From the UHGV virus genome UHGV-0185805: DNA of 17,212 nt, one strand, 5' to 3'. How positions within the stretch are numbered: position 1 is the first letter of the stretch; the number at the start of each line of letters is the position of its first letter. The notes under the pieces are model-generated. The model had not been told where the DNA came from. It saw only the letters and a list, made by a program, of their open reading frames with translations, and did no database searches. This stretch comes from a virus. Shown one piece after another: positions 1,365 through 17,212 of the stretch. Made by a program: the position numbers and the translations under genes.

Positions 1365-1973
1365 TTATTTGATTTCAATTTTGTCCCACTCCCTGCCTCT
1401 GTCATCACGATACTGTGATGCCATGGTGTCCGACTTATGCCCGAGAAGATGTTGAGCAAACTTATCGCTTATCTGCTTCTCATAGAGTCTTGCAGACAAA
1501 CTGCGCAACTCGTGAAAGGTAGGCGGATCCCCTTCGAAGGAAAGACCTGATGCTTTTCGTGCGCGCATAAAATACCTTGATACTGTGCCGGATGAAAGCG
1601 GTTCACGACGAGTAGATGCAATTATGGTTTCTCCGCCAAGAATCTCTTTGCATTTATCAAGTGTTTCCTTCATTGATATCCCGAGAGCATCAACATGCAA
1701 TGTTGTTGGGATGGCAATTTTTACGCCTGTTTTGCTTTGCTCGACATAAAGATATCCATCTACGATATCAGACCACTTCATTTCGCATAAATCACCAACT
1801 CGCTGCCCGGTAACAACAGCCAGTTCCATTGCAAGTCTGAGCCAACATGGTGATGATTCTGCTGCTTGATAAATTTTCAGGTATTCGTCAGCCGTAAGTC
1901 TTGATCTCCTTACCTCTGATTTTGCTGCGCGAGTGGCAGCGACAGGGTTTGTTGTTATATGGCCTTGTCGCCG
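1365..1973 (-). pseudogene. int: Lambda-type integrase fragment: C-terminal ~202 codons (catalytic domain) only; N-terminal arm-binding and most of core-binding domain absent; in-frame TAG at 1974-1976
   Basis: ORF 1365-1829 (MELAVVTGQRVGDLCEMKWSDIVDGYLYVEQSKTG...DDRGREWDKIEIK) matches the lambda Int C-terminus as remembered. In-frame homology (..GHITTNPVAATRAAKSEVRRSRLTADEYLKIYQAAESSPCWLRLA) extends 48 codons upstream to a TAG stop with no start codon. Catalytic residues (R in TGQR, HELR, GH, SQY) are retained. Confidence 0.85.
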
Positions 1974-3837: not shown

Positions 3838-4216
3838 TTAGGAATCAAGGTCAGGTAGCATGATTTTCTCAATCAACGTCAATGCCCTTTGGTCTCGTTC
3901 AGCAAAATATTTAGGAGCGTACTGAGGCAGCCACACTTCGTTGAAGTATTGTTTGAAATCTGCAATATTCGTTTGGGTATAGACGTACCGGGAATGTCCG
4001 GCCATCTGGGTACTCATGGTTATATGTTGGGAATGTCTTCGGCTCAACCCCCCGGTTGTCACGGAGCCATTGCGAGAAAACCCTACCCTCTGAAATATCA
4101 GGGACCATTTTTTCTGGCAGCGTATATCCGGCCTGTTCAAGTGGCGCAACCAAGTTAAACGTCAGTTCATTAAGCATAGAAAAGTGCGTATGAGGAACTC
4201 TGCCTCGGTTTGTCAT
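3838..4216 (-). pseudogene. Hypothetical protein in the rexAB position, apparently disrupted by a -1 frameshift near 3985-4000 (ORF 3911-4216 carries the N-terminal part, ORF 3838-4149 the C-terminal part)
   Basis: Two overlapping minus-strand ORFs in different frames. 3911-4216 starts protein-like (MTNRGRVPHTHFSMLNELTFNLVAPLEQAGYTLPEKMVPDISEGRVFSQWLRDNRGVEPKTFPTYNHEYPDGR...) but ends Arg/Ser-rich. 3838-4149 starts junk-like but ends protein-like (...YVYTQTNIADFKQYFNEVWLPQYAPKYFAERDQRALTLIEKIMLPDLDS) right before the terminator. No family recognised. Confidence 0.45.
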
Positions 4217-4255
4217 ATACCGCTTAAGGTGGATAGGGAGTTCGGCAGGCGCTCT

Positions 4256-4597
4256 TTAACCTGACATCCACTCACGCACCCATCTCGATACTTGCACTGC
4301 AAATTTTGGAGATAGCCACTGAGCTAAATTAATTGCGATGTCTGGATGAACCCAAGTCCCTTGATTCTCTGCTCTTCCGCCTTTAAATGATTGAATTAAC
4401 TCCGATATGGGAATCCCCATATCGCGTGATAATTCATCAAAAAAATCTTGTGTTGTTTTTAGTCGTGTATAGTCAGCAAGTAGCTTCCCCGCAGACTTGC
4501 ACATCGCGGTGGCATTGATGTATCCGTCTTTGGTGCGAAGATGGATGACTTCTCCATCAACTTCTCTAGCGATTAATGCAAGTTGAAATTGTGTCAT
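4256..4597 (-). CDS. KilA-N domain protein (stand-alone, 113 aa) immediately downstream of cI
   Basis: ...DGYINATAMCKSAGKLLADYTRLKTTQDFFDEL...WVHPDIAINLAQWLSPKFAVQVSRWVREW fits the KilA-N/Bro-N signature as remembered. AGGA RBS 6 nt upstream of ATG; 31-nt gap after the cI stop. Confidence 0.75.
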   Translation of the reverse strand: MTQFQLALIAREVDGEVIHLRTKDGYINATAMCKSAGKLLADYTRLKTTQDFFDELSRDMGIPISELIQSFKGGRAENQGTWVHPDIAINLAQWLSPKFAVQVSRWVREWMSG

Positions 4598-5442: not shown

Positions 5443-5643
5443 ATGGAACAACGCATAACCCTGAAAGATTATGCAATACGCTTTGGGCAAACCAAGACGG
5501 CTAAAGATCTCGGCGTATATCAAAGCGCGATTAACAAGGCCATTCATGCAGGCCGAAAGATTTTTTTAACTATAAACGCTGATGGAAGCGTTTATGCGGA
5601 AGAAATAAAGCCCTTCCCAAGTAACAAAAAAACAACTGCATAA
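5443..5643 (+). CDS. cro: Cro repressor (lambda type, 66 aa)
   Basis: [66 protein letters not shown], two substitutions relative to lambda Cro as remembered. Confidence 0.95.
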
Positions 5644-5650
5644 GTAACAC

Positions 5651-5696
5651 CGCTCTTTTCACAATGGACATTCGTCCTACGTCGCTGACAAAGCGA
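5651..5696 (+). promoter_or_regulatory. nutR: boxA-like CGCTCTTTT (5651-5659) and P22-type boxB hairpin TCGCTGACAAAGCGA (5682-5696)
   Basis: Located between cro and the cII-like gene, where nutR sits in lambdoid phages. The boxB loop (GACAA) is the same type as nutL. A hairpin ATGCGT-TTCC-ACGCAT at 5727-5742 may be a tR1-like structure. Confidence 0.55.
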
Positions 5697-5780
5697 GCCC
5701 CAAGATATCTGACCAACTAAGGCCATATGCGTTTCCACGCATACCTTTCAACTAACTATTCACTATTGGAAAATTAACAA

Positions 5781-6077
5781 ATGACACAAGCAAGTTATAG
5801 CAAGCCAACACAGCGAGAAATTGATCGCGCTGAAACTGATTTACTCATCAACCTGTCAACGCTTACCCAGCGCGGTCTGGCAAAGATGATTGGCTGTCAT
5901 GAATCGAAGATAAGCAGAACGGACTGGAGGTTTATTGCTTCGGTCTTGTGTGCTTTCGGAATGGCATCAGACATCAGTCCGATTAGCAGGGCTTTTAAGT
6001 ATGCATTGGATGGAATCACAAAGAAAAAATCCCCGGCCGCCACCGAGGATTTTAAGCAAATTGATATGCAATTCTGA
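5781..6077 (+). CDS. cII: CII-like transcriptional activator (98 aa), diverged from lambda CII
   Basis: Position after cro/nutR; C-terminus KKKSPAATEDFKQIDMQF parallels lambda CII NKKRPAATERSEQIQMEF (from memory); central HTH-like segment ...GCHESKISR.... Confidence 0.7.
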   Translation: MTQASYSKPTQREIDRAETDLLINLSTLTQRGLAKMIGCHESKISRTDWRFIASVLCAFGMASDISPISRAFKYALDGITKKKSPAATEDFKQIDMQF

Positions 6078-6109
6078 GGTCATTACTGGATCAATCTACA
6101 GGAGTAATT

Positions 6110-6271
6110 ATGACAAAACGTCGTAAGAAATACCAGGAAAAAGAAGAGATTCGACACCCTGATTCACCTGAGGGATTAGTGGTAGCCGCAGCAAATAACA
6201 GGGCGTTCGCAGAGCGCCTTGTTGGTGTTTACAGACTAGCCAAAGTAGGAGTGAAACATGGGCGTCGTTAA
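6110..6271 (+). CDS. Small hypothetical basic protein (53 aa) with strong RBS, unknown function
   Basis: AGGAG 7 nt upstream of ATG at 6110; MTKRRKKYQEKEEIRHPDSPEGLVVAAANNRAFAERLVGVYRLAKVGVKHGRR; stop at 6269-6271, 1 nt from the converging Q fragment stop. Below the ORF-track length cutoff. Confidence 0.3.
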   Translation: MTKRRKKYQEKEEIRHPDSPEGLVVAAANNRAFAERLVGVYRLAKVGVKHGRR

Positions 6272-6272
6272 G

Positions 6273-6752
6273 TTAGCTGATTGCTGGCATTCTTGAATAG
6301 CCGACACCTTTGCATCTTCCGCACTCTTTCTCAACAACTCTCCCCCACTGCTCCGTTTTGGCTATATCAACCGCACGGCCTGTACCGTGGCAATCTCTGC
6401 ATCTTGCACCCGGCGTCGCGGCACTACGGCAATAATCCGCATAAGCGAATATTGCGAGCACTTGCAGTACCTTTGCCTTAGTATTTCCTTCGAGCTTTGC
6501 CACACCACGGTATTTCCCCGATACCTTGTGTGCAAATTGCATCAGATAGTTGATAGCCTTTTGTTTGTCGTTCTGGCTGAGTTCGTGCTTACCGCAAAAT
6601 GCAGCCATCCCGAATCCGGCCTGTGATTGTGCCATCCCCATAGCAGCCATCACATCAGTACCGGAAAGAGAGTCAGAAGCTGTAGCCCGTGGTGAGTCGC
6701 TAATCATCGGGCTTTTTGGCGAATGAAATTTAGCTACGCTTTCGAGTCTCAT
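6273..6752 (-). CDS. Q: Antitermination protein Q, lambda type, C-terminally truncated (159 of ~207 aa), inverted relative to PR
   Basis: MRLESVAKFHSPKSPMISDSPRATASDSLSGTDVMAAMGMAQSQAGFGMAAFCGKHELSQNDKQKAINYLMQFAHKVSGKYRG...CRDCHGTGRAV...CGRCKGVGYSRMP matches the lambda Q N-terminal region including the zinc-binding cysteines as remembered; the ORF then hits a stop where lambda Q continues. Confidence 0.8.
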   Translation of the reverse strand: MRLESVAKFHSPKSPMISDSPRATASDSLSGTDVMAAMGMAQSQAGFGMAAFCGKHELSQNDKQKAINYLMQFAHKVSGKYRGVAKLEGNTKAKVLQVLAIFAYADYCRSAATPGARCRDCHGTGRAVDIAKTEQWGRVVEKECGRCKGVGYSRMPAIS

Positions 6753-7800
6753 GCGCCTTCTCCCTGTAATCGACCAGAATCATGCCAACACATCCTTTTT
6801 CTCGCTTGATTCGACGACTTTCGCTGACGATTTGAGCCAGAGATAATCCCGGCGTGTCGTCGATGTAAAGCAGGTCGATTTCACTCAAGCGATTGGCTGT
6901 TTCGATCGCCCTGTTGAAGTCACCATCGTAATCACCCTGATAGCCGTCATCAGCGTCATTTGTCGCCGGAAGGTAAAAAATATTCGGGTTAACACCAGAC
7001 TTCTGCCCTACCAGTTTTTCCAGTATCTGGTCACCTGGCATTTCAAGGCTGAACATCAGAGCGGGCTTTTTCTCATGCACTGCGCAGTTGATTGCCATCT
7101 GGCTGTATAGCGTCGTTTTCCCCATCTTAGGGCGAGCGCCAATGACAAACAGAGAGCCTTTCACCAGACCTTTCGGTGACAGCATCCTGTCCAGCGATGG
7201 GATCCCTGTGCTCATTCCTCGTTGTTCGCCTGACGGGTCAAATCGCTTCTCAAGGTCGCTAACCCAGTCTTCCATGACCTCACCAAATGAACGAAGGCCG
7301 CGACGCGATCCGGTTTTTGCATGGTCTGTCAGTTGCGTGAAAATCGACTGAATAGCTTCGTACTTCTGCGTTGCAGTCATTCCGTTGCGGGAATAGAGCA
7401 ATTCCGTCGCTTCAGTCATACGGTTGATGGCGTAGCGTTCCATTGCGGTTTCACGAACCTGCATTGCATAGGCAACGATGTTTGCTGCGCTTGGCGTGTT
7501 CTTTGCGATCTCAGCGATATAAGCAAAACCGCCAACAGACACAGTTAACGATTTACGCTCCAGTTCATCGAAAAGCGTCAGGCCATCTACTGGCTTTTGC
7601 TCCCGGTGCATTCTGGTTATTTCTTCGAAAAGGATTTTGTGTGGCCGGCTGTAAAATGAATCAGGCTTCAGCATCGCCAGAACCTTCTGGACGCGCTCAC
7701 TGCTGTCATCATCCAGAAGCAATCCACCAATCACCGCCTGCTCTGCCTCGATGCTATGGGGCGGCGCATAAAAATTATCGGTCATCGTGTTCACCCTCAC
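6730..7800 (-). CDS. DnaB-family replicative helicase (P22 gp12-like), C-terminally truncated at ~356 aa and abutting the Q start
   Basis: N-terminal DnaB signature SIEAEQAVIGGLLLD and Walker A GARPKMGKTT present; ORF ends ...GMILVDYREKAHETRKRS* just after the helicase motif where DnaB proteins normally continue ~100 aa; its stop overlaps the Q ATG. Confidence 0.75.
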   Translation of the reverse strand: MRVNTMTDNFYAPPHSIEAEQAVIGGLLLDDDSSERVQKVLAMLKPDSFYSRPHKILFEEITRMHREQKPVDGLTLFDELERKSLTVSVGGFAYIAEIAKNTPSAANIVAYAMQVRETAMERYAINRMTEATELLYSRNGMTATQKYEAIQSIFTQLTDHAKTGSRRGLRSFGEVMEDWVSDLEKRFDPSGEQRGMSTGIPSLDRMLSPKGLVKGSLFVIGARPKMGKTTLYSQMAINCAVHEKKPALMFSLEMPGDQILEKLVGQKSGVNPNIFYLPATNDADDGYQGDYDGDFNRAIETANRLSEIDLLYIDDTPGLSLAQIVSESRRIKREKGCVGMILVDYREKAHETRKRS

Positions 7801-8293
7801 GAACTTTCAGGTAGGTATTATCGTTAAGCAGGAAATCAAATCCCTTTTTGTGCCAGACAGTTCCGCGTTGATGGTTTGGACGCTCTTCGAACATCCATCG
7901 GCAATTTTCGCCTACGTAGCTCAAATAATTTCTCCAGTCCTGCATCGTGAACCCATGCCCGTCAAGCTGGCGGGTTATCACTCCGGCTTTGCGCCAGAAC
8001 GTTCGGATCTGGTTTTTACGCTTGTCATTCAGTGCGCGGATTCTTGGCGCTTCAGGAAGGATTTCGTGGTAAGCATCGACAACATCCTGACAGCTGACGG
8101 AAGGTTTTTTCTTGTCAGACTTTTTGTCTGCTGTAGCACTCTCTAATACGTCAGTATTAGAGATATTATTTATATTATTGTTTATGGACAACCGTTGGAC
8201 AATTTTTTGCCTGAAAATCGTCATATTTAACGATTGTAAACAGGCTAAATTTCTTCCCCATCGAGCAAATATTAAGCATACCTTTCGACTCAA
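7775..8293 (-). CDS. Replication initiator (O-like) linker and C-terminal part, in a different frame from the upstream N-terminal ORF (frameshifted single gene or two genes)
   Basis: ORF spans the AT-rich palindromic ori-like DNA (translated as ...SINNNINNISNTDVLES...) and ends overlapping the helicase start, as O-type genes do. Confidence 0.45.
   Translation of the reverse strand: MSRKVCLIFARWGRNLACLQSLNMTIFRQKIVQRLSINNNINNISNTDVLESATADKKSDKKKPSVSCQDVVDAYHEILPEAPRIRALNDKRKNQIRTFWRKAGVITRQLDGHGFTMQDWRNYLSYVGENCRWMFEERPNHQRGTVWHKKGFDFLLNDNTYLKVREGEHDDR
8140..8163. repeat. Perfect 10-bp inverted repeat TCTCTAATAC-gtca-GTATTAGAGA flanked by AT-rich DNA; candidate origin element inside the O-like gene
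   Basis: Read directly from the sequence; followed by tattatttatattattgtttat (8164-8186) and a second palindrome AATCGT-n8-ACGATT near 8214-8233. Confidence 0.4.
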
Positions 8294-8525
8294 AAGTCCG
8301 TAATAAGCTCCGAACTTTGTTGTCGGGGATGAATGTTTCTCTGACCAGCGACGGGCGTCCAGTTATCATCTGACCGCGATCAACAGTTATCGGACCGATA
8401 TCCGTATTGACGACAGTAGATTCGTGATTAGCCTTGAGGATTAAGTGAAGCCAAAGATGTACTGCCTGAGAGTCCTTATAGAGCCTGCTGTCCATAAACT
8501 GGCGGTGTATAGAGACATACCCCAT
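8175..8525 (-). CDS. Replication initiator (O-like / P22 gp18-like) N-terminal DNA-binding part
   Basis: MGYVSIHRQFMDSRLYKDSQAVHLWLHLILKANHES... resembles phage replisome-organiser N-terminal domains; directly upstream (same strand) of the helicase. Overlaps the next ORF 8175-8293 in another frame. Confidence 0.55.
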   Translation of the reverse strand: MGYVSIHRQFMDSRLYKDSQAVHLWLHLILKANHESTVVNTDIGPITVDRGQMITGRPSLVRETFIPDNKVRSLLRTFESKGMLNICSMGKKFSLFTIVKYDDFQAKNCPTVVHKQ

Positions 8526-8560
8526 ACTGGATGCCTCCTGATGTTGTACAGGGTTATGCC

Positions 8561-8869
8561 TGTAAACTCAAATCAACAGCCGCCGGACGTTACCAGCTTC
8601 TTTCCCGTTGGTGGGATGCCTACCGTAAGCAGCTTGGACTGAAAGACTTCTCTCCGAAAAGCCAGGACGCTGTGGCACTGCAGCAGATTAAAGAGCGTGG
8701 CGCTTTACCGATGATTGATCGCGGTGATATCCGTCAGGCTATCGACCGTTGCAGTAATATCTGGGCTTCACTGCCGGGCGCTGGTTATGGTCAGTTCGAG
8801 CATAAGGCTGACAGCCTGATTGCAAAATTCAAAGAAGCAGGCGGAACGGTCAGAGAGGTTGAGGTATGA
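8561..8869 (+). pseudogene. R: Endolysin R fragment (lambda-type transglycosylase, C-terminal ~100 codons only)
   Basis: ...[100 protein letters not shown] matches the lambda R C-terminal half as remembered. The N-terminal catalytic part and the holin gene are absent; the ATG at 8531 lies in junction DNA. Confidence 0.85.
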
Positions 8870-10443
8870 GCAAAGTCACCGCGATTATCTCCGCTCTGGT
8901 TATCTGCATCATCGTCTGCCTGTCATGGGCGGTCAATCATTACCGTGATAATGCCATCGCCTACAAAGAGCAGCGTGATAAAAAAGTCAGTGAGCTGAAG
9001 CAGGCGACTGCCACCATTACTGACATGCAGCAGCGCCAGCGTGATGCTGATGCACTCGATGCTAAATACACGAAGGAGTTAGCTGATGCGAAAGCTGAAA
9101 ATGATGCTCTTCGGCGCAAGCTTGATAATGGTGGCAGGGTGCTCGTCAAAGGAAAATGCCCTGTGCCATCCTCAGCCGAAACCTCCAGCGCCTCCGGCAT
9201 GGGCAATGATGCCACCGTCGAACTCTCTCCAGTTGCTGGACGAAACGTTCTCAGTATCAGATCTGGAAATCCAGCGTTTGTTGCACAGGCACAACAGGCG
9301 TTTTCCGGTCTTAATGAGCAGCAACGCAACGATATGGGCGATTTAGCCATGAGGGCTAACGTCGCTCTTTCTCAGGGACCGGAAGCCTACAGTAAATTCA
9401 TTACTGACAACAAGGACAGGTTAAATCGTGTGGGGGCTAATGCTGACTGGATGATTCAGACAGGTATCCAGAATCCAGAGCAGCTATCACACATGCTGAC
9501 TACTATGTCTCTCGGTGCACTTGGGCCAGAAAAGGCGTTTGCTGTTCAGGACAAGATAGCTGGTCGTGAGATTGACCGAGGCAGACTGGCAGAGACAATC
9601 CGCAGCAATCAGGCCAGCGAAGCACTTCAGGCGAGAGGGCAGGATATTAGCCGAGCAAATGCGTTAACGTCAGCATATGCACCAACAGCCGCAATGCAGA
9701 ATTACAATCAGTACGCGCAAATGTTAAAGGCGGATCCAGATGGTGCAGCGGCATTTGCGGCAGCGGCGGGAATTAATCCCAATGCTAAGAAATTACTTAA
9801 GGTTGAAACCAATCCTGATGGCTCGGTAACTAAGTATTACACCGATGGCAGCGAGGAAGCCGGAAAACTAAACCAACCTATATCTGGTGATGGCATTAAA
9901 CCAATTAGTTTGCCACAAGCGCAAAGCATCATAGATAAGGCTAATGAGGGTTCCAAGAAGGCGGCAGGATTTGCTTTGCGATTAAAAGATTCAATGGACT
10001 CAATGAATCAGCTTAGTAAAAGCATTGACCCTAAGCGAGTTGCATTAATAAATCGCTCTCTTGGTGATGGGACTATTGCAAATTTAAGCCTATCACCAGC
10101 GGAGCAGCAATATATGGTAAATGCGAGAGACGCCTTGTATGCAATTTTGCGCCCAGAAACAGGTGCAGCAATTACTCTGCCAGAGATGCAGGAGTATTCC
10201 AAAATGTACCTGCCTCAGCCTGGTGATTCCAAGGCTGCTACTGAAACAAAAATGCGAAAAATGCAGGGCCAATATAACTCATTACGTGGTCAGTCTGGTC
10301 GCGTTTATGATGCTTTGGTGGTTTCAAGTGTTGCAAATAGTCAACAACAGAGCAATAGCCAACAACCGACAAATACCCAACAGCAGCAGAGTCAATCCGG
10401 ATCATATACCTCAAAATCAGGCATTCAATTTACGGTGGAATGA
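8866..10443 (+). CDS. Chimeric ORF: Rz-like spanin 5' part (about first 125-135 codons) fused in frame to the C-terminal ~390 codons of a probable P22 gp20-type ejection protein
   Basis: N-terminus [31 protein letters not shown]...[16 protein letters not shown] matches lambda Rz and overlaps the R stop as in lambda; an Rz1-like lipoprotein ORF is embedded in the +1 frame. The remainder is Ala/Gln-rich and overlaps (ATGATGA) the start of the gp16-like gene. The gp20 assignment is by position, not by remembered sequence. Confidence 0.6.
9086..9346 (+). CDS. Rz1-like outer-membrane lipoprotein spanin embedded in Rz frame +1 (native end probably near 9275; 3' part may be junction-derived)
   Basis: [19 protein letters not shown] (signal peptide plus lipobox) followed by proline-rich [11 protein letters not shown], as in lambda Rz1. 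Confidence 0.5.
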
Positions 10444-12281
10444 TGAAAGTAACTGCAAACGGTAAGACATTTACCTTCCCTGATGGTACGAGCACGGAAG
10501 ATATTGGCACCGCCATTGATGAGTATTTTGCTGGTCAGGCTGTTCAGCAACAAACAGTTAATCAGGCCAATAATGAACCAGCACGTGAAGAACCATCATT
10601 GATGCAACAAGCTGGCGATTGGCTCACAGGTGGTCAAAGTGCAGGGCAAATTGCAGAGCAGGCTGGTCGTGGTCTGGTAAACATACCATTTGACGTATTG
10701 CAGGGCGGCGCAAGTCTGATTAATGCAATCAGTCAGGGGCTTGGTGGACCCAAGGTTTTGGATGATGTTTATCGTCCAGTAGACAGACCGACAGACCCAT
10801 ACGCACAAGCCGGTGAAACAATTGGTGGGTATTTAGTTCCAGGAGTTGGAACGGCAGGAAGCATGGCTATTGGATCACTGGCAGAGGCCGCAAATCAGAA
10901 AGGCGATTTCGCACAAAATGCAGCTAAAAATGCCGGAGTTAACCTTGCCGCTCAGGGGGTTCTTTCCGCAGCAGCAAAGGGAATAGGGCGTGGAATAACG
11001 GCTATAAAAGGTGATATTGCGCCAGAAGTGGCGAAGAAAATTGCCACATCAGAATCGATGGGCGTGACACCAATGACATCTGATGTTATCCCGCCGAAAA
11101 ATGCTTTCACTCGCGGCCTTACTCAGGATGCCGAGGGGGCTTTGCTCGGGACAGGCTCAAAGCGAGCGGAGCAATATGCAACGCGTAGTAAGTTGGTAAG
11201 TAATTATTTTGACCGTTTTGGTGAGTACAACCCGGATGATGTGGTGAAATCTCTGACCACCACGTTAAGGGGACGGAAGGATGCCGCTGGCGCTGTTATC
11301 AATGACGTCACCAATAAAATGGGGAATGCCGCAGTTGATACCACAAACACTATGAATGCTCTGAATACAGCGATCGCAAGACAGGAACGGCTTGGGACGT
11401 CTGCCAATCAAAGCCTGCTTACATCCTTGCGTAACCTACGCGAAGAATTAGCAAACCCTGCAACTGATTTGGATGTTACGTTTGATCTCTTGCGTCAGCA
11501 CAGAACAGCATTTAGATCTAATGTTCAGGGAGATGCTATGGTCTTCCCCAACCAGGCAAAAGCAGCTACCAATATGGTAGAGAATGCAATGTCAAAAGAC
11601 CTTCGTAACGCAGTTGCTAAAAACCTCGGTGCATCAGACGCAGCAAAATACCTTAAAGCAAATTCAGATTATGCAAACGTTTATAATAAGGTGCTTAATA
11701 AAAACATTGCTAACAAGCTCAACAAGGCAAGCAGTGAAGCCAGTCCTGAACTTATAAATACCGTTGTATTAAGCAGAAAACCATCTGACGTGAAACGAAT
11801 CTGGAGCGCATTGGATGATAAAGGGAAAGATGCTATGCGTGCAGCTTACGTCAGCAAAATAGCGGAAAAGGCCGGTGACTCTCCAGCCAAGTTCATCACT
11901 GAAGTTAATAAGCTTAAATCTCAGTCAGGCGGTGAAATTTACAACACTATTTTTTCTGGAAAGCACATGAAAGAGCTCGATGCTCTTCATGAAGTTCTAC
12001 AGCAAACAGCAAGGTCAGACACCGCAAATGTAGTAACTCAGACGGGGCAATCACAAGCCAACAGGATAAGGACGATTGGCGCAACTGCGACTCTTGGAGT
12101 ATCAATGGGGCTTGAGGCTGGTTTTGGTGCAATGATGCGTTTGTATGAGTCCAAAGCAGCAAGGAATGCGCTCTTACGTCTGGCAAACACTAAAGCTGGA
12201 ACGCCAGCTTATGAAAGAGCGCTAAATCAGGCTGCTACTGCCGTGCGCCCGCTCTTAGCTAACGAAGCGACCCGGCAGTAG
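10440..12281 (+). CDS. Probable DNA-ejection (internal virion) protein, P22 gp16-like (613 aa)
   Basis: Size close to P22 gp16 as remembered (~609 aa), Ala/Gly-rich, follows the gp20-like ORF with overlapping start and precedes the sieA-position / mnt-arc-ant / tailspike block as in the P22 map. Assigned by synteny; no search run. Confidence 0.6.
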
Positions 12282-12303: not shown

Positions 12304-12798
12304 TTATTTTATAGTTTTTATGAATTCTTTATTAAATCCCTTAGCTTCTCCGGGGTATCTTCCAAAGACAATTTTTATAAAAACAGAAAAAATAAAGATA
12401 GCAACGCTTAACAACAGTTGCAGTATCATTGGAACCCAAAGAACTACAGGCTCTATATTCATGAAACCAAATATTCTTCCGGCGATCATGGCGAAGTACC
12501 ACACTGTTATCAGCAAACTTAGTGGCATATGAATTACTGATATTACCAATCCAAGAGCATCAGTAATTCTATTTTCAAATTTTTCAGGGGAAAACTTTTC
12601 TTTAAGGTAATTCAGTGCGCAGGCCTCATTCTCTGGATTTTCAGCATTTTTCCCTATAGCAATAGAAATCTCAGATATCCTTGATTCAATTCTTTTGCGT
12701 TTAATAAAACTAGAAAAAAAGAACCACGCAATCTGCAACCCTATCCCCATAAATAGAGTTGCGGCAACTAGCACAGCGTAACTCATAGAATCAGACAC
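12304..12798 (-). CDS. Small inner-membrane protein (about 4 TM helices) in the position of P22 sieA; candidate superinfection-exclusion protein
   Basis: Hydrophobic segments ([25 protein letters not shown]; [31 protein letters not shown]; [30 protein letters not shown]); AT-rich. Start uncertain: GTG at 12796-12798 with GAGG 5 nt upstream, ATG at 12784-12786, or the track start at 12870. Confidence 0.45.
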
Positions 12799-13015
12799 AC
12801 CAACCTCTTTAGTTTTTCTAGTTACTTTGTCACGATAGGATATGCGAATTGATAAAACTAAATTGCGCACATGATAACTCAGTAATAATTGTTAATGAAA
12901 ACATGATCACCTATATTGCACAAGGCGAAACAGGAAGCATAATCTGGTTTCATGAGTGTGATCACGTTTGGGTAAATCAAAGTCAAGAGGAAATACTTGA
13001 AATTATCAAAAATAA

Positions 13016-13597
13016 CTATCTAAACGTTGCACACGACTCATCTATCCATTTTTCATAAAATTGTATACCGAGATAGGCAAGAACAGATGGATGTATATCA
13101 ACAAGCTTTTCGCCAAGATGTTCTGTTGGAGGTGGATAATCTTTTCCTTGGTTTCTTACGGTTATAGGCATAGTTGTTGCTGGATGAAACTCAACTATCA
13201 TAGGGTCGCCTTCGTATTTTGCTATTTTCCCTGTTGAATCAATGATTAACTCTTTAATATAATGGCTTCTTGCTCCCGGAAATGCCCCAAGAGTAGTATA
13301 AGGAGGTTCAAGTTTTGAGATTTCCATAGTGGAATGATGATCAGCATTTCTTGCTTGGTGAAGGTAAGCAAGTGTTTTGTCTGTTTTTCTAAGCATGAAC
13401 TTTTGGTTGAAGTGGCTGCTAAATTTTCCACTAACCGGCTTTGTTGCACAGAGCAACTTACTGAAAGACTTTTCTATATGCCCAAGACATTCTCGCCAGT
13501 GCATTTCAAAATCATCATGGTTTGTAGATGATTTCATCTGCTCTAGGCACTTTTTAGCTGCGATGATTTCTTTTTTTGCTGGGTTGTAATCGATCAT
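13016..13597 (-). CDS. Hypothetical 193-aa protein translationally coupled to mnt (ATGA overlap); possible HEPN-like RNxxxH motif; function unknown
   Basis: ATG at 13595-13597 overlaps the mnt stop (13594-13596); AGGA RBS lies inside the last mnt codons. AT-rich, no family recognised. Contains ...LHQARNADHHS..., which fits the HEPN Rx4-6H pattern but is weak evidence on its own. Confidence 0.6.
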   Translation of the reverse strand: MIDYNPAKKEIIAAKKCLEQMKSSTNHDDFEMHWRECLGHIEKSFSKLLCATKPVSGKFSSHFNQKFMLRKTDKTLAYLHQARNADHHSTMEISKLEPPYTTLGAFPGARSHYIKELIIDSTGKIAKYEGDPMIVEFHPATTMPITVRNQGKDYPPPTEHLGEKLVDIHPSVLAYLGIQFYEKWIDESCATFR

Positions 13598-13848
13598 TTT
13601 GCATCCTTGCCATACATGTTTTTAAGTGTCTCAAATACCACAGACTTGAACTGTTCAGCCTGCATCTCGGCTAATCGTTCAGCTTCATTGCGATAACCTT
13701 TTACAGGAGATGGTCTCGATAGAGCATCTTGGACGATTTGCAACAATTCTGAGTTCATTGATCTACCATTTGACTCTGCTCTGTATTTTAATTTTTCTCT
13801 TACTTCCAAAGGCATGCGGAAGTTAAAGTGCGGATCATCTCTAGCCAT
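13594..13848 (-). CDS. mnt: Mnt repressor (P22 immI maintenance repressor, ribbon-helix-helix)
   Basis: MARDDPHFNFRMPLEVREKLKYRAESNGRSMNSELLQIVQDALSRPSPVKGYRNEAERLAEMQAEQFKSVVFETLKNMYGKDAK is near-identical to P22 Mnt as remembered. It is the 3' 84 codons of track ORF 13594-14244, whose upstream extension is spurious. Confidence 0.85.
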   Translation of the reverse strand: MARDDPHFNFRMPLEVREKLKYRAESNGRSMNSELLQIVQDALSRPSPVKGYRNEAERLAEMQAEQFKSVVFETLKNMYGKDAK

Positions 13849-13870
13849 GCCATCACTCCAAGTTAGTGTA

Positions 13871-13922
13871 TTGACATGATAGAAGCACTCTACTATATTC
13901 TCAATAGGTCCACCGTGGACCC
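13871..13922. promoter_or_regulatory. immI control region: Pant (-35 TTGACA 13871-13876, -10 TATATT 13894-13899), Arc operator (13876-13896) and Mnt operator GGTCCACCGTGGACC (13907-13921)
   Basis: ATGATAGAAGCACTCTACTAT matches the P22 arc operator as remembered; the symmetric GGTCCACCGTGGACC matches the Mnt operator; arrangement between divergent mnt and arc as in P22. Confidence 0.7.
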
Positions 13923-13938
13923 ATATTGTGAGGTGAAT

Positions 13939-14100
13939 ATGAAAGGAATGAGCAAAATGCCGCAGTTCAATTTGCGGTGGCCTAAAGAAGTATTGGATTT
14001 GGTACGCAAGGTGGCGGAAGAGAATGGTCGGTCTGTTAACTCTGAGATTTATCAGAGAGTAATGGAAAGTTTTAAGAAGGAAGGACGCATTGGCGCGTAA
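13939..14100 (+). CDS. arc: Arc repressor (P22 immI, 53 aa)
   Basis: MKGMSKMPQFNLRWPKEVLDLVRKVAEENGRSVNSEIYQRVMESFKKEGRIGA is near-identical to P22 Arc as remembered; the track ORF start at 13876 lies inside the operator and is rejected. Confidence 0.9.
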   Translation: MKGMSKMPQFNLRWPKEVLDLVRKVAEENGRSVNSEIYQRVMESFKKEGRIGA

Positions 14101-14169
14101 AGTTGAAGCCCCAACTGCGGGAACAGTCAGGGCTTCGATATCGTAAAACCACGCATAGGAATTAACGAC

Positions 14170-15093
14170 ATGAAAAGTATAGCAACAGCAGTATCTACTA
14201 TCAATGTACCATTCCACGGCGCAGAGCTTTATGTTGTCAATCACAACGGTGAGCCGTACACCCCAATGAAACCTATCGTTGAGGGAATGGGTATGGATTG
14301 GGCTTCACAGTTTACAAAGTTAAAACAAAGATTTGCTAAAGGAATTGTGGAAATCGCAATACCTTCAGTTGGCGGTGTGCAGACCATGATTTGCCTTGCT
14401 TTACGTAAACTGAATGGCTGGTTGCAAACCATCAGCCCTAACAAAGTCCGCCCTGAAATCCGCGACAATGTAATCCAGTATCAAGAAGAGTGTGACGATG
14501 TGCTATACGAGTACTGGACTAAAGGCCATGTAGTTAACCCACGCAAAGCTAAAAAAGCGTTGCCGGGTAAAATCACCACTGAACAGCAGGAAGCCATTAA
14601 ACAACTCGTCATGAGTCGCGGTCAGTCTCTGCCAAAAGAAAAACAGGCTAAGGCGATGATCACCATGTGGTCGTCACTAAAATCCCATTTTGGATGTTCG
14701 TACAAAGAAATCAGTGAGGAGCAGTTTACCGAAGCACTATCACTTGCAGCTCGAGTTCCACTTGAAGGTGAGTTCATTGGCAAACAAGAGAAGAAAACCA
14801 ACGAGCTTTCTGCAAAAGAAGCAAACAGCCTTGTATGGTTATGGGATTATGCCAACCGTTCGCAGGCATTATTCCGCGAACTGTATCCGGCGCTAAAACA
14901 AATTCAATCGAACTATTCCGGCAGATGCTACGACTACGGTCATAAGTTCTCGTATGTTATCGGAATGGCGAGAGACGTTTTAATAAACCACACACGAGAT
15001 GTTGATATTAATGAGCCAGACGGACCAACGAATCTTTCCGCATGGATGAGACTTAAGAATAAAGAATTACCTCCTTCAGTACATAACTACTGA
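14170..15093 (+). CDS. ant: Antirepressor Ant (P22 immI type, 307 aa)
   Basis: Follows arc after a 69-nt spacer with an AGGA RBS and is followed by a terminator and the tailspike, exactly the P22 mnt-arc-ant-gene 9 synteny; size matches Ant (~300 aa). Confidence 0.7.
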
Positions 15094-15111
15094 CAGATAA
15101 CCAACGCAACG

Positions 15112-15136
15112 ACCCAGCTTCGGCTGGGTTTTTTTA
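15112..15136 (+). terminator. Rho-independent terminator downstream of ant
   Basis: Stem ACCCAGC (15112-15118) / GCTGGGT (15123-15129), loop TTCG, followed by TTTTTTT. Confidence 0.65.
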
Positions 15137-15193
15137 TGCCCAAAATTCACCGTAGCCATGCTGCGGCGATTCCTTGTATCTGGAGCAAATTAA

Positions 15194-17212
15194 ATGACAG
15201 ACATTACAGCTAATGTTGTAGTGAGCATGCCTTCGCAACTCTTCACTATGGCTCGTTCTTTTAAAGCTGTAGCCAATGGCAAAATTTATATCGGTAAAAT
15301 TGACACTGACCCGGTAAATCCTGAAAACCAGATTCAGGTTTATGTGGAGAACGAAGACGGATCTCACGTTCCTGTTTCGCAACCAATCATCATTAACGCT
15401 GCTGGATATCCGGTATATAACGGACAGATTGCCAAATTCGTTACCGTGCAAGGCCATTCTATGGCTGTTTATGATGCATATGGTGCTAAGCAGTTCTATT
15501 TTCCGAATGTGCTGAAGTATGACCCTGATCAATTAAGAGAGGAATTATCTAGTAAAGGTGGTTTTAATTTAGTTGGTGAGTTGGGTGCTGTATCTGATTT
15601 TTATGGAATGGAATCTAATAATGGAGATAAGGTTTTACTAAAGTCATGGTATCGAGATGGAAGTGGTGGTGGTGGTATTTTTGAGTTTAATGACAGCATA
15701 ATAAGGTCGAAGCATGACGGAGGGTGTATAATATCACCATCAGTTCCATATATTGGAGATGCATATGTATCAGACTATGTAAACGGAGTTGGAGATGAAC
15801 ATCCATCATCAAACGGTTGTTGGGTTAGAAGAGACATCAAAGAAATCACAGGTGAAATGTATGGTATGCATGGAAATCCTGATGATAACTTGGACTTATC
15901 ACCAAATCTAAGGAAGGCCATTTCAGCCGCCGGAGTTCTTGGGCTTGGGGTCGTTTTACCAGGCAATATTATAAATTTAAAATCACCAGTATCAATACCA
16001 ATACACCAGAGAGAAGGTGGAAAAGTAGCTTATATAAGAGGTGTTGACGAAAAGTTATCAATAGTAAATATACTAGCTTCAGAAACTTCGCAGAATAATT
16101 TCGGGATTTATCTTGATGGCTCTCTTTCAGTATTTTCATCATTCCCCATAGAAAACCTCACTATCAGATCTGTAGATTCAAGTGCCAATAGATCTGACTG
16201 GTCAGGATTTGGATTAAATATAAACAAATGCATCAGGCTTTCAATGAGGAATGTTCTGATAGATGGCTTTGAGATTGGGTGTAAACTGAAAGATTCATTA
16301 TATCTTGAGTTTAACAATTGTAGATTTACTTATAACAAAACAGCAATACAAGGAAGACTTGGTGAAGTGTCAGGACCAAACTCAATAAGACTTTCACGCT
16401 GTGATTTTCAGTACAATGCTGAATTTTGTATCGAAAACCAACACGCACACGCTTGGAAAATTGACACTTGTACGTTTGAAGCAAATGGAGGGAAATCATA
16501 TTCCAACGGGACCCCAATTGCATTTAATTCGTGCGTACAGTTTGCGTTGATTGGTGGTGCAGGTCGTGTCGCAGCAACAATTGATAATTGCTATTTCGAA
16601 TCAAATACTGGTTCTGATGTGAGTTTTTACATAAACAGAAACTTAAATCAAATTATTAACATAAATAATTCAATATTTAACTATAATTTAGATTCCGTTA
16701 GCGCATCTAGAGTTATAGTACAGTCAAATCAATCAGATCTCAGTTCTGGTGTTCAATGTTATTTGAATATGATGGGAAATGGTTTTCTTAACACTGGTGC
16801 TTCTGCTGAATCTGCATTTAAAGAAGTGCAATTTGTCGTCCCTTCATCTTTTGGTGTTAGCCATCTTGTTTTTACAGACTTTGGCAACCAAAATTCAATG
16901 AAATCACCATATTCTGGATTGGAAAAAGTTCAGAGAAATAGCCAAGGGTTGGTATCTGCAAGAGCAAATATTTCATCTACAGGTGCTTATTCATTAGCTC
17001 AGAACATATCAAATGTATCTAGACTGCCATCAGGAACATATAAGATAGATTTTACATTTAACGTTTCAACACTCGTTCCAAATATTACATTGTTTGGAGG
17101 ATCTGGTAGATATTCAAGTTTCTCAAGGGATTCAGACTATTCAATTACGGTTAAGACATTTAATAATACAGGTGCCAATGTTGATTTGGATTTTATTATT
17201 ACAGTAATGTAA
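15194..17212 (+). CDS. Tailspike protein: P22 gp9-type N-terminal head-binding domain (~115 aa) fused to a divergent AT-rich beta-helix receptor-binding domain (672 aa total)
   Basis: [60 protein letters not shown]...[31 protein letters not shown] matches the P22 tailspike N-terminus as remembered; homology and GC content drop after about codon 115 (near 15540). The remainder is rich in N/S/G/I repeats typical of right-handed beta-helix polysaccharide-binding or depolymerase domains. Stop at 17210-17212. Confidence 0.85.

Follow-up and report, generated by a model that had tools for sequence, protein, structure and literature searches.

The question raised by this locus is how a single open reading frame (ORF) can begin as a lysis protein and end as a DNA ejection protein. 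The stretch of DNA analysed here, UHGV virus genome UHGV-0185805 (17,212 nucleotides, hereafter called the window), contains on its plus strand an ATG-initiated ORF of 525 amino acids (aa) that a preliminary description, made from the sequence, had placed at 8866-10443 and had taken to be an in-frame fusion of a lambda-type Rz with a protein like gp20 of phage P22, created by deletion of the morphogenesis region. Position, strand and start codon proved exact. We could establish the two parents of this chimera, the exact joint, the reading frame, the losses suffered by each half and the distribution of the fusion within one clone. The chimera is most probably a fusion pseudogene, a by-product of prophage decay through microhomology-mediated deletion. 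The ORF and its parts are as follows.

8866..10443, plus strand: chimeric ORF, Rz(1-134)::gp20(101-491) with its stop codon (ORF list, profile matches and protein alignments with the parents).
8866..9266, plus strand: Rz-derived part, codons 1-134, with a transmembrane domain (TMD) at approximately aa 4-24, the proximal coiled coil CC1, a linker with Cys98 and the first third of the distal coiled coil (DNA identity, hydropathy and the domain map of lambda Rz; PMC5295617).
9267..9268, plus strand: crossover, a 2-nt AA common to both parents (codon-level three-way alignment, with which other parental alleles agree).
9269..10443, plus strand: gp20-derived part, parental codons 101-491, corresponding in P22 numbering to residues 101-185 of PP1, the PP2 barrel, the PP3 plinth and the C-terminal tail (alignments and the domain map of P22 gp20; bioRxiv 10.64898/2026.09.03.749273).

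Profile matches split the ORF cleanly. The Pfam family Phage_lysis (Rz) matches aa 29-142 (E 1.9e-22) and PHROG 13, the Rz-like spanins, aa 1-136; Pfam Inj_translocase (PF16928) matches aa 130-262 with profile positions 85-217 of 218 (E 2.5e-65), and phrog_917, the gp20 type, aa 131-525 with positions 97-509 of 509. Each half of the chimera is therefore a truncated member of a different, unrelated family. The Rz half is 97% identical in DNA to the Rz gene of the prophage of Escherichia coli M9, the proteins being identical through ...RNVLSIRSG, and it ends at residue 134 of the 155-aa parent (approximately residue 133 of lambda Rz), so that the last 21 residues are gone. It aligns with the Rz of lambda, P22, ST540 and JEP4; 30 of its first 31 residues are those of lambda Rz, as the preliminary description had noticed, and identity to lambda is 65% over aa 1-132. 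That description was right about the Rz origin, but had called the segment divergent and let it end at about residue 125; it extends to residue 134 and is an ordinary Rz allele, not a degenerate one. Residues 135-525 are 100% identical over 391 aa to residues 101-491 of many 491-aa E. coli gp20 proteins (“DNA transfer proteins”) and differ at two positions from the allele of the Combat2C1 prophage. With 13.3% Ala and 9.7% Gln this part indeed corresponds to the Ala/Gln-rich sequence of about 390 aa reported earlier, and its relation to gp20-type proteins was borne out by this identity. Also the predicted overlap with the start of a gp16-like gene is present (TGATG/ATGATG at 10440-10445), the same overlap as that between genes 20 and 16 in P22.

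The joint itself could be placed at the base level. Megablast against phage genomes showed that homology on the Rz side stops at window positions 9252-9268 and that homology on the gp20 side begins at 9267. In a three-way comparison of the window with the M9 prophage Rz, the nearest allele, and the full-length gp20 of the Combat2C1 prophage, Rz homology continues to 9268 and gp20 homology starts at 9267, with unrelated sequence past the joint on either side. The Rz parent reads ...AGA TCC GGA ATC... (residues ...R S G I...), the gp20 parent ...GCC CAG GAA AAT CCA... (...A Q E N P...) and the window ...AGA TCT GGA AAT CCA... (...R S G N P...); at the crossover the codon phases of the two parents coincide. 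A joint falls in frame by chance in 1 of 3 cases, and a long ORF then follows automatically, since the downstream frame is that of a native gene. In the intact Lederbergvirus JEP4 the two breakpoints lie 12,494 bp apart, and the terminase, portal, scaffold, coat, gp4, gp10, gp26, gp14 and gp7 genes are located between them, which agrees with the proposed loss of the morphogenesis region. Thus, both parents exist elsewhere as intact, separate genes, the breakpoint is sharp and the intervening genes are missing from the window.

Chimeric ORFs can be artefacts, and this prior is all that speaks for a mis-join in assembly or sequencing, or for a native modular family with this architecture. The identical junction, however, occurs in independent isolate assemblies (including two contigs of more than 5 Mb), gut metagenome scaffolds, IMG/VR and Logan contigs. 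The assembly collection indexes the exact 525-aa protein in 273 blocks, with at least 133 contigs encoding it. Eight loci, and three further ones found with a 24-mer of the junction (L016-L018), have 99.8-100% DNA identity to the window over the whole remnant. Between these 11 true carriers and the window there are 0-8 single-nucleotide polymorphisms (SNPs) per approximately 17 kb, which gives no power for dN/dS; the 1-nt indels of one of them (L010) look like long-read errors. This identity across the whole remnant marks the junction carriers as one young E. coli clone. In none of the 5,426 complete RefSeq E. coli genomes does a match extend across the junction; each covers one side only. Independent fusions were sought by a word-indexed search of 5.8 billion proteins (best 120 hits) and an exhaustive search of 1.84 billion cluster representatives (best 150 hits). 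No independent Rz-gp20 fusion was present among these best 120 and best 150 hits; all two-domain proteins listed, i.e., the clone itself, P0031 and P0156, carry the same junction. Since the architecture is confined to this clone among those hits, and both halves are truncated versions of complete families, a native family is contradicted as well. An origin as an artefact or as a native family, to which we gave practically no credence, is refuted by the independent assemblies and the protein searches.

Some candidates obtained in these searches were rejected. P0031 (489 aa, both domains) was considered as a second fusion. It has the same junction, on a metagenome scaffold (L020) with zero SNPs and several dropouts of 100-240 nt, and its 36-aa gap is probably an assembly artefact. 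Two exact 24-nt matches to the junction, one in a metagenome-assembled genome labelled Anaerolinea thermophila (L014, 3406-3429) and one on the minus strand of a metagenome contig (L015), are due to chance; they lie in unrelated coding sequences and show no other similarity to the window. A query with an 81-aa junction segment failed to recover the known chimera and gave only short partial Rz or gp20 entries, and no count of derivatives was drawn from it.

With the joint and its distribution settled, the origin of the fusion can be considered. The element lies between ybhC, which is 100% identical to that of K-12-lineage E. coli, and ybhB-bioA, i.e., in the lambda attB region of E. coli. We propose that a P22-like (Lederbergvirus-type) prophage resided at lambda attB between these genes, and that a deletion of approximately 12.5 kb by illegitimate recombination would have joined Rz codon 134 to codon 100/101 of gene 20 at the 2-nt microhomology, the breakpoints by chance being in the same codon phase. 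Translation would then proceed from the native Rz start through the rest of gene 20 to the native stop that overlaps gene 16. The same event would have removed the distal coiled coil of Rz, all head and tail-hub genes, gene 7 and the gp7-binding, outer-membrane part of gp20, and would have rewritten the C-terminus of Rz1. JEP4, a sequenced Lederbergvirus, unites the same integrase (99%), the same type of Rz allele and the N-terminus of gp20, and a single ancestral phage of this architecture is therefore plausible. Alternatively, the joint could stem from illegitimate recombination between two co-resident prophages, a lambdoid one contributing the segment from int to Rz and a P22-like one that from gene 20 to the tailspike. 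The best match of the left arm, a prophage in ST540 at the same site, indeed has non-P22 head genes after Rz, and the best match of the right arm, Combat2C1, resides at another attachment site and has another integrase. However, best hits of the two arms in different genomes are to be expected from the mosaicism of lambdoid and P22-like phages; in JEP4 and ETEC1716 a single element has both P22-type late genes and the same integrase or attachment site; and the order in the window, with int on the left and the tailspike on the right between one ybhC and one ybhB-bioA, is that of a single P22-like prophage. A two-prophage origin counts against a deletion within one prophage, but we consider it improbable.

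Could a protein formed in this way still function as a spanin? Two reading frames that overlap the chimera bear on this.

9086..9346, plus strand: embedded Rz1' frame, 86 aa (Pfam Rz1 E 4.3e-20; compared with the 68-aa parents of ST540 and JEP4).
8531..8869, plus strand: endolysin remnant R', a 112-aa ORF whose stop overlaps the ATG of the chimera (residues 12-112 are 97% identical to lambda R 58-158; the first 57 codons of the gene are gone).

Like the lambda-type i-spanin Rz (PF03245, PHROG 13), the chimera has in its N-terminal 134 residues an N-terminal transmembrane anchor, the periplasmic coiled coil CC1 and the linker Cys behind the native ribosome-binding site and start codon; it likewise shares a stop/start overlap with the endolysin gene and contains Rz1 in the +1 frame. 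Unlike Rz, it is without the last 21 residues, comprising most of CC2 and the Cys-containing C-terminus that binds Rz1; 391 unrelated residues stand there instead. In lambda Rz, CC2 comprises residues 121-150 and its distal end touches Rz1, and nonsense alleles up to codon 152 are all lysis-defective (PMC5295617). Judged from these published genetics, the chimera would be unable to work as an i-spanin, because most of the distal coiled coil and the Rz1-binding end are gone. The surroundings also differ from a lambda lysis cassette, in which holin, endolysin and spanin are under a late promoter: in the remnant the holin, the PR' region and the 3' end of Q are deleted and the endolysin is truncated. 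The embedded Rz1 lipoprotein frame had been recognized in the preliminary description, and its lipoprotein signal and proline-rich mature domain, as in an Rz1 o-spanin, are indeed present, with the lipobox ...VAGC and positions 1-40 of 41 of Pfam Rz1 (PF06085). What had gone unseen is that its C-terminus is itself chimeric, the native last approximately 10 aa being swapped for approximately 28 aa of out-of-frame gp20 sequence, giving 86 instead of 68 aa. The exact Rz1' ORF was absent from the protein collection searched. Lambda Rz1 tolerates truncation to residue 55 (PMC5295617), but the end of Rz to which it would bind is missing from the chimera.

For the gp20 half, the structural work on P22 (bioRxiv 10.64898/2026.09.03.749273) provides the reference. 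Residues 1-47 of P22 gp20 line the extracellular channel of gp7*, an outer-membrane helix comprises residues ~51-66, the PP1 bundle of seven helices residues 68-185, the PP2 barrel residues 186-255 and the plinth at the cytoplasmic membrane residues 256-435, and the C-terminal tail meets gp16; mutations conferring SieA escape map to residues 338-350 (see also PMC10461980). The neighbouring gene is the following.

10443..12281, plus strand: intact gp16 ejection-protein gene, 612 aa, with an alternative ATG at 10440, overlapping the stop of the chimera (phrog_770, 2.4e-280; PF26808 Phage_P22_gp16).

The same gp16 length (612 aa) is found in the intact Combat2C1 prophage. Like P22 gp20 (PF16928, phrog_917), which forms the periplasmic channel of the ejectosome, the chimera has 391 residues of a common E. 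coli gp20 allele and the overlap with gene 16. Unlike gp20, it has lost residues 1-100, i.e., the segment in the gp7* lumen, the outer-membrane helix and one third of PP1 at its start. By sequence, residues 101-185 of PP1, PP2, PP3 and the conserved C-terminal end are present, PP1 being cut within its helix bundle. The parental allele does keep the outer-membrane residues V51, L53, L56, L59, V62, I65 and Y66. The N-terminus of gp20, normally at the outer membrane, has been replaced by a foreign anchor with the opposite membrane polarity. Gene 16 is still present, but gene 7 is absent and so are the genes for terminase, portal, scaffold, coat, gp4, gp10, gp26 and gp14, leaving neither packaging nor ejection. 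In view of the published P22 gp20 structures, the chimera would not be able to serve as an ejection protein, since no capsid is left that could take it up, gene 7 is no longer there, and it has lost the segment that binds gp7 as well as the outer-membrane helix and part of PP1. A sequence search of the PDB with the chimera gave no solved homologue, only a marginal match to an adhesin (E 0.007). A single-sequence AlphaFold2 model was of low confidence, with a mean predicted local distance difference test score (pLDDT) of 53, below 50 at the junction, and a predicted template modelling score (pTM) of 0.30, and no conclusion rests on it.

Whether the chimera is made at all depends on the arrangement upstream, where the remnant, mapped against the intact prophage at the same site (ST540, locus L002), has been heavily rearranged.

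6281..8565, minus strand: inverted O-to-Q block with Q' (codons 1-157), a truncated dnaB' and a frameshifted O' (families; map and joints compared with ST540 L002).

This block has the reverse orientation with respect to cII/orf53 and to the lysis remnant, and at its right joint (8564/8565) the 3' end of Q, the late-promoter region, the holin and codons 1-57 of R are missing. Neither these deletions nor the inversion had been noticed in the earlier reading of the sequence, and because of them the normal expression route is gone. From the loss of the holin, the late-promoter region and the 3' end of Q we infer that the chimera would be poorly expressed or silent in the lysogen. The only transcription that could reach it in the arrangement of the window would appear to be that from PR, running antisense through the inverted block, and PR would be repressed by the intact cI. 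In a consensus scan for promoters and terminators, promoter-like sites were no commoner than in shuffled sequence, and RNA folding around the start codon was unremarkable (z = 0.09). On the other hand, the native Shine-Dalgarno sequence and ATG of Rz are intact at the start of the chimera, and hydropathy indicates a single hydrophobic transmembrane segment (~aa 4-24) and no other elsewhere. Any protein made should be held in the inner membrane by its TMD, the remainder being in the periplasm. Membrane targeting of the fusion, as had been suggested, is plausible since the TMD, Shine-Dalgarno sequence and start of Rz are all intact.

The fusion has itself been subject to further deletion. P0156 (380 aa, found in at least four sequencing runs) runs past chimera residue 156 in frame into gp16 at residue ~389, window positions 9335-11605 being deleted. 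This deletion takes the gp20 residues from chimera position 157 on and two-thirds of gp16, and keeps the C-terminal domain of gp16. P0156 is evidently a descendant of the fusion. Its contigs (L023, L024) are also without window positions 5616-8704, as a result of which cro is fused in frame to R' (111 aa) and the Rz::gp20'::'gp16 fusion stands directly behind cro in the PR operon. As most of the gp20 body has been deleted again there, this body is dispensable in the P0156 sub-lineage. In another sub-lineage (L009 and L013), positions 5535-6766 are gone, from the 3' end of cro through Q', and an insertion sequence (IS) element with a DDE_Tnp_1/DUF772 transposase after 12821, past sieA, replaces the segment mnt-arc-ant-tailspike. 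From these deletions and the IS replacement it follows that prophage erosion is still under way in the clone.

Several observations weigh against regarding the chimera simply as debris. The ORF with its Shine-Dalgarno sequence and ATG is intact, and so are gp16 downstream of it, sieA, the immI region and the tailspike gene, although the clone is too young for an absence of decay to inform either way. Furthermore, the two additional deletions in L023/L024 are in frame and leave the fusion directly downstream of cro in the PR operon, a possible hint that a translated product has been selected for; this hint is likely weakened by ascertainment bias, as readers of ORFs and cluster representatives reveal in-frame products. 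The finding that 3 of 3 same-strand ORF-to-ORF joints are in frame (nominally 1/27) was set aside as evidence for selection, two of the three having been found via long or novel ORFs.

These observations could be accommodated if the chimera had been exapted as a decoy, an inner-membrane-anchored periplasmic fragment of gp20 (PP1'-PP2-PP3) that, alone or with gp16 and SieA, would disturb how incoming P22-like phages assemble their trans-envelope channel and so add to superinfection exclusion. Besides the intact anchor and translation start, such a role would be served by the retained self-associating barrel and by the plinth contacting gp16 and the cytoplasmic membrane, where the SieA-escape residues fall. 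The intact gp16, sieA, mnt/arc/ant, sar RNA and tailspike gene would also fit it, as would the sub-lineage deletions that stay in frame and keep the C-terminal domain of gp16 behind PR-cro. Yet no promoter is evident, the late-promoter region and the 3' end of Q being deleted, and neither the chimera nor gp16 matched a family of the PADLOC-DB defence models at E <= 0.001. PP1 is truncated within its seven-helix bundle, and Rz that is not complexed with Rz1 undergoes proteolysis in the periplasm (PMC5295617). Clonal youth alone accounts for the integrity of the ORF, and the in-frame pattern is open to the bias mentioned. Moreover, a decoy function cannot reside in the gp20 body, because the P0156 sub-lineage has deleted almost all of it. 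We therefore regard exaptation as a decoy as very unlikely. The stronger proposal that both Rz::gp20 and Rz::gp20'::'gp16 are translated, dominant-negative decoys against the P22-like DNA channel, and that the repeated in-frame deletions reflect selection, has a smaller chance still.

The remainder of the element is consistent with the fusion pseudogene being one of several lesions in the prophage. The integrase is cut to its C-terminal 154 aa (window 1365-1966, minus strand), homology to the intact integrase of ST540 and JEP4 ending at 1966; since only this C-terminal ORF is left, the remnant probably cannot excise. In the immunity region cI, cro, cII and orf53 are intact, and next to cI a bstA-like abortive-infection gene (window 3838-4597, minus strand) is split into three frames. 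The inverted block contains a deletion of the nin region at 6766-6768. As at the Rz-gp20 joint, short microhomology (2-3 nt) marks each of the three other novel joints (~6282, ~6767 and ~8565). In the O-like gene a 77-nt deletion between 18-nt direct repeats (window 8185-8202) frameshifts O into two ORFs. The site of this deletion is the probable iteron region of ori; the deletion is found in the window, L016 and L018 and not in L006-L013, which encode a 275-aa O. The right arm (12304-17212) looks intact and P22-like, with sieA (188 aa), orf193, mnt, arc, the sar RNA, ant and a complete tailspike gene (672 aa) that extends through its stop to the final base of the window. The smaller features are listed here.

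4256-4597, minus strand: KilA-N ORF of the bstA-like gene.
3911-4216, minus strand: bstA-like fragment matching BstA profile positions 160-226.
3838-4149, minus strand: bstA-like fragment matching BstA profile positions 236-272.
14101-14168: sar antisense RNA (Rfam, 81.8 bits).

A fusion made by deletion is a well-known kind of object. As in other chimeric ORFs of decaying prophages and evolving genomes, a large deletion at a microhomology has fused two genes on the same strand, and chimeric genes from large deletions are described for E. coli evolution experiments (PMC13626634). The present case differs in that the parents are unrelated and not paralogous and in that the product is most probably functionless. 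Databases contain other fusions involving Rz, namely P0186 (284 aa), in which lambda R(1-~134) is joined in frame to Rz, and P0255 (293 aa), in which the N-terminus of Rz (~70 aa) precedes tail-fibre-like sequence. In view of these, this locus is not the only one at which prophage decay has produced an Rz chimera.

The fusion described here is already fixed in its clone and is deposited under a gp20-type name, and its importance lies mainly in annotation. It is present in more than 100 assemblies without any sign of being a spanin/gp20 chimera; the names given to the 525-aa protein at NCBI are “phage DNA ejection protein” and also “acyltransferase,” and some PGAP annotations (P0004) call a protein of 395 aa from the non-canonical ATC codon 131 (window 9256), just upstream of the joint, by which the Rz part is hidden. 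The combination of PF03245 and PF16928 in one protein could mislead surveys of domain architecture and programs that assess the completeness of prophages. For the biology of E. coli and its P22-like phages, the fusion would carry weight only if membrane-anchored gp20/gp16 fragments are expressed and hinder the entry of such phages; such a decoy, if real, would mean that prophage decay had given rise de novo to a superinfection-exclusion function. As it stands, the locus provides a cleanly resolved case of stepwise prophage erosion through microhomology-mediated deletions and one inversion, in which the parents, the joints and the later derivatives can all be identified.

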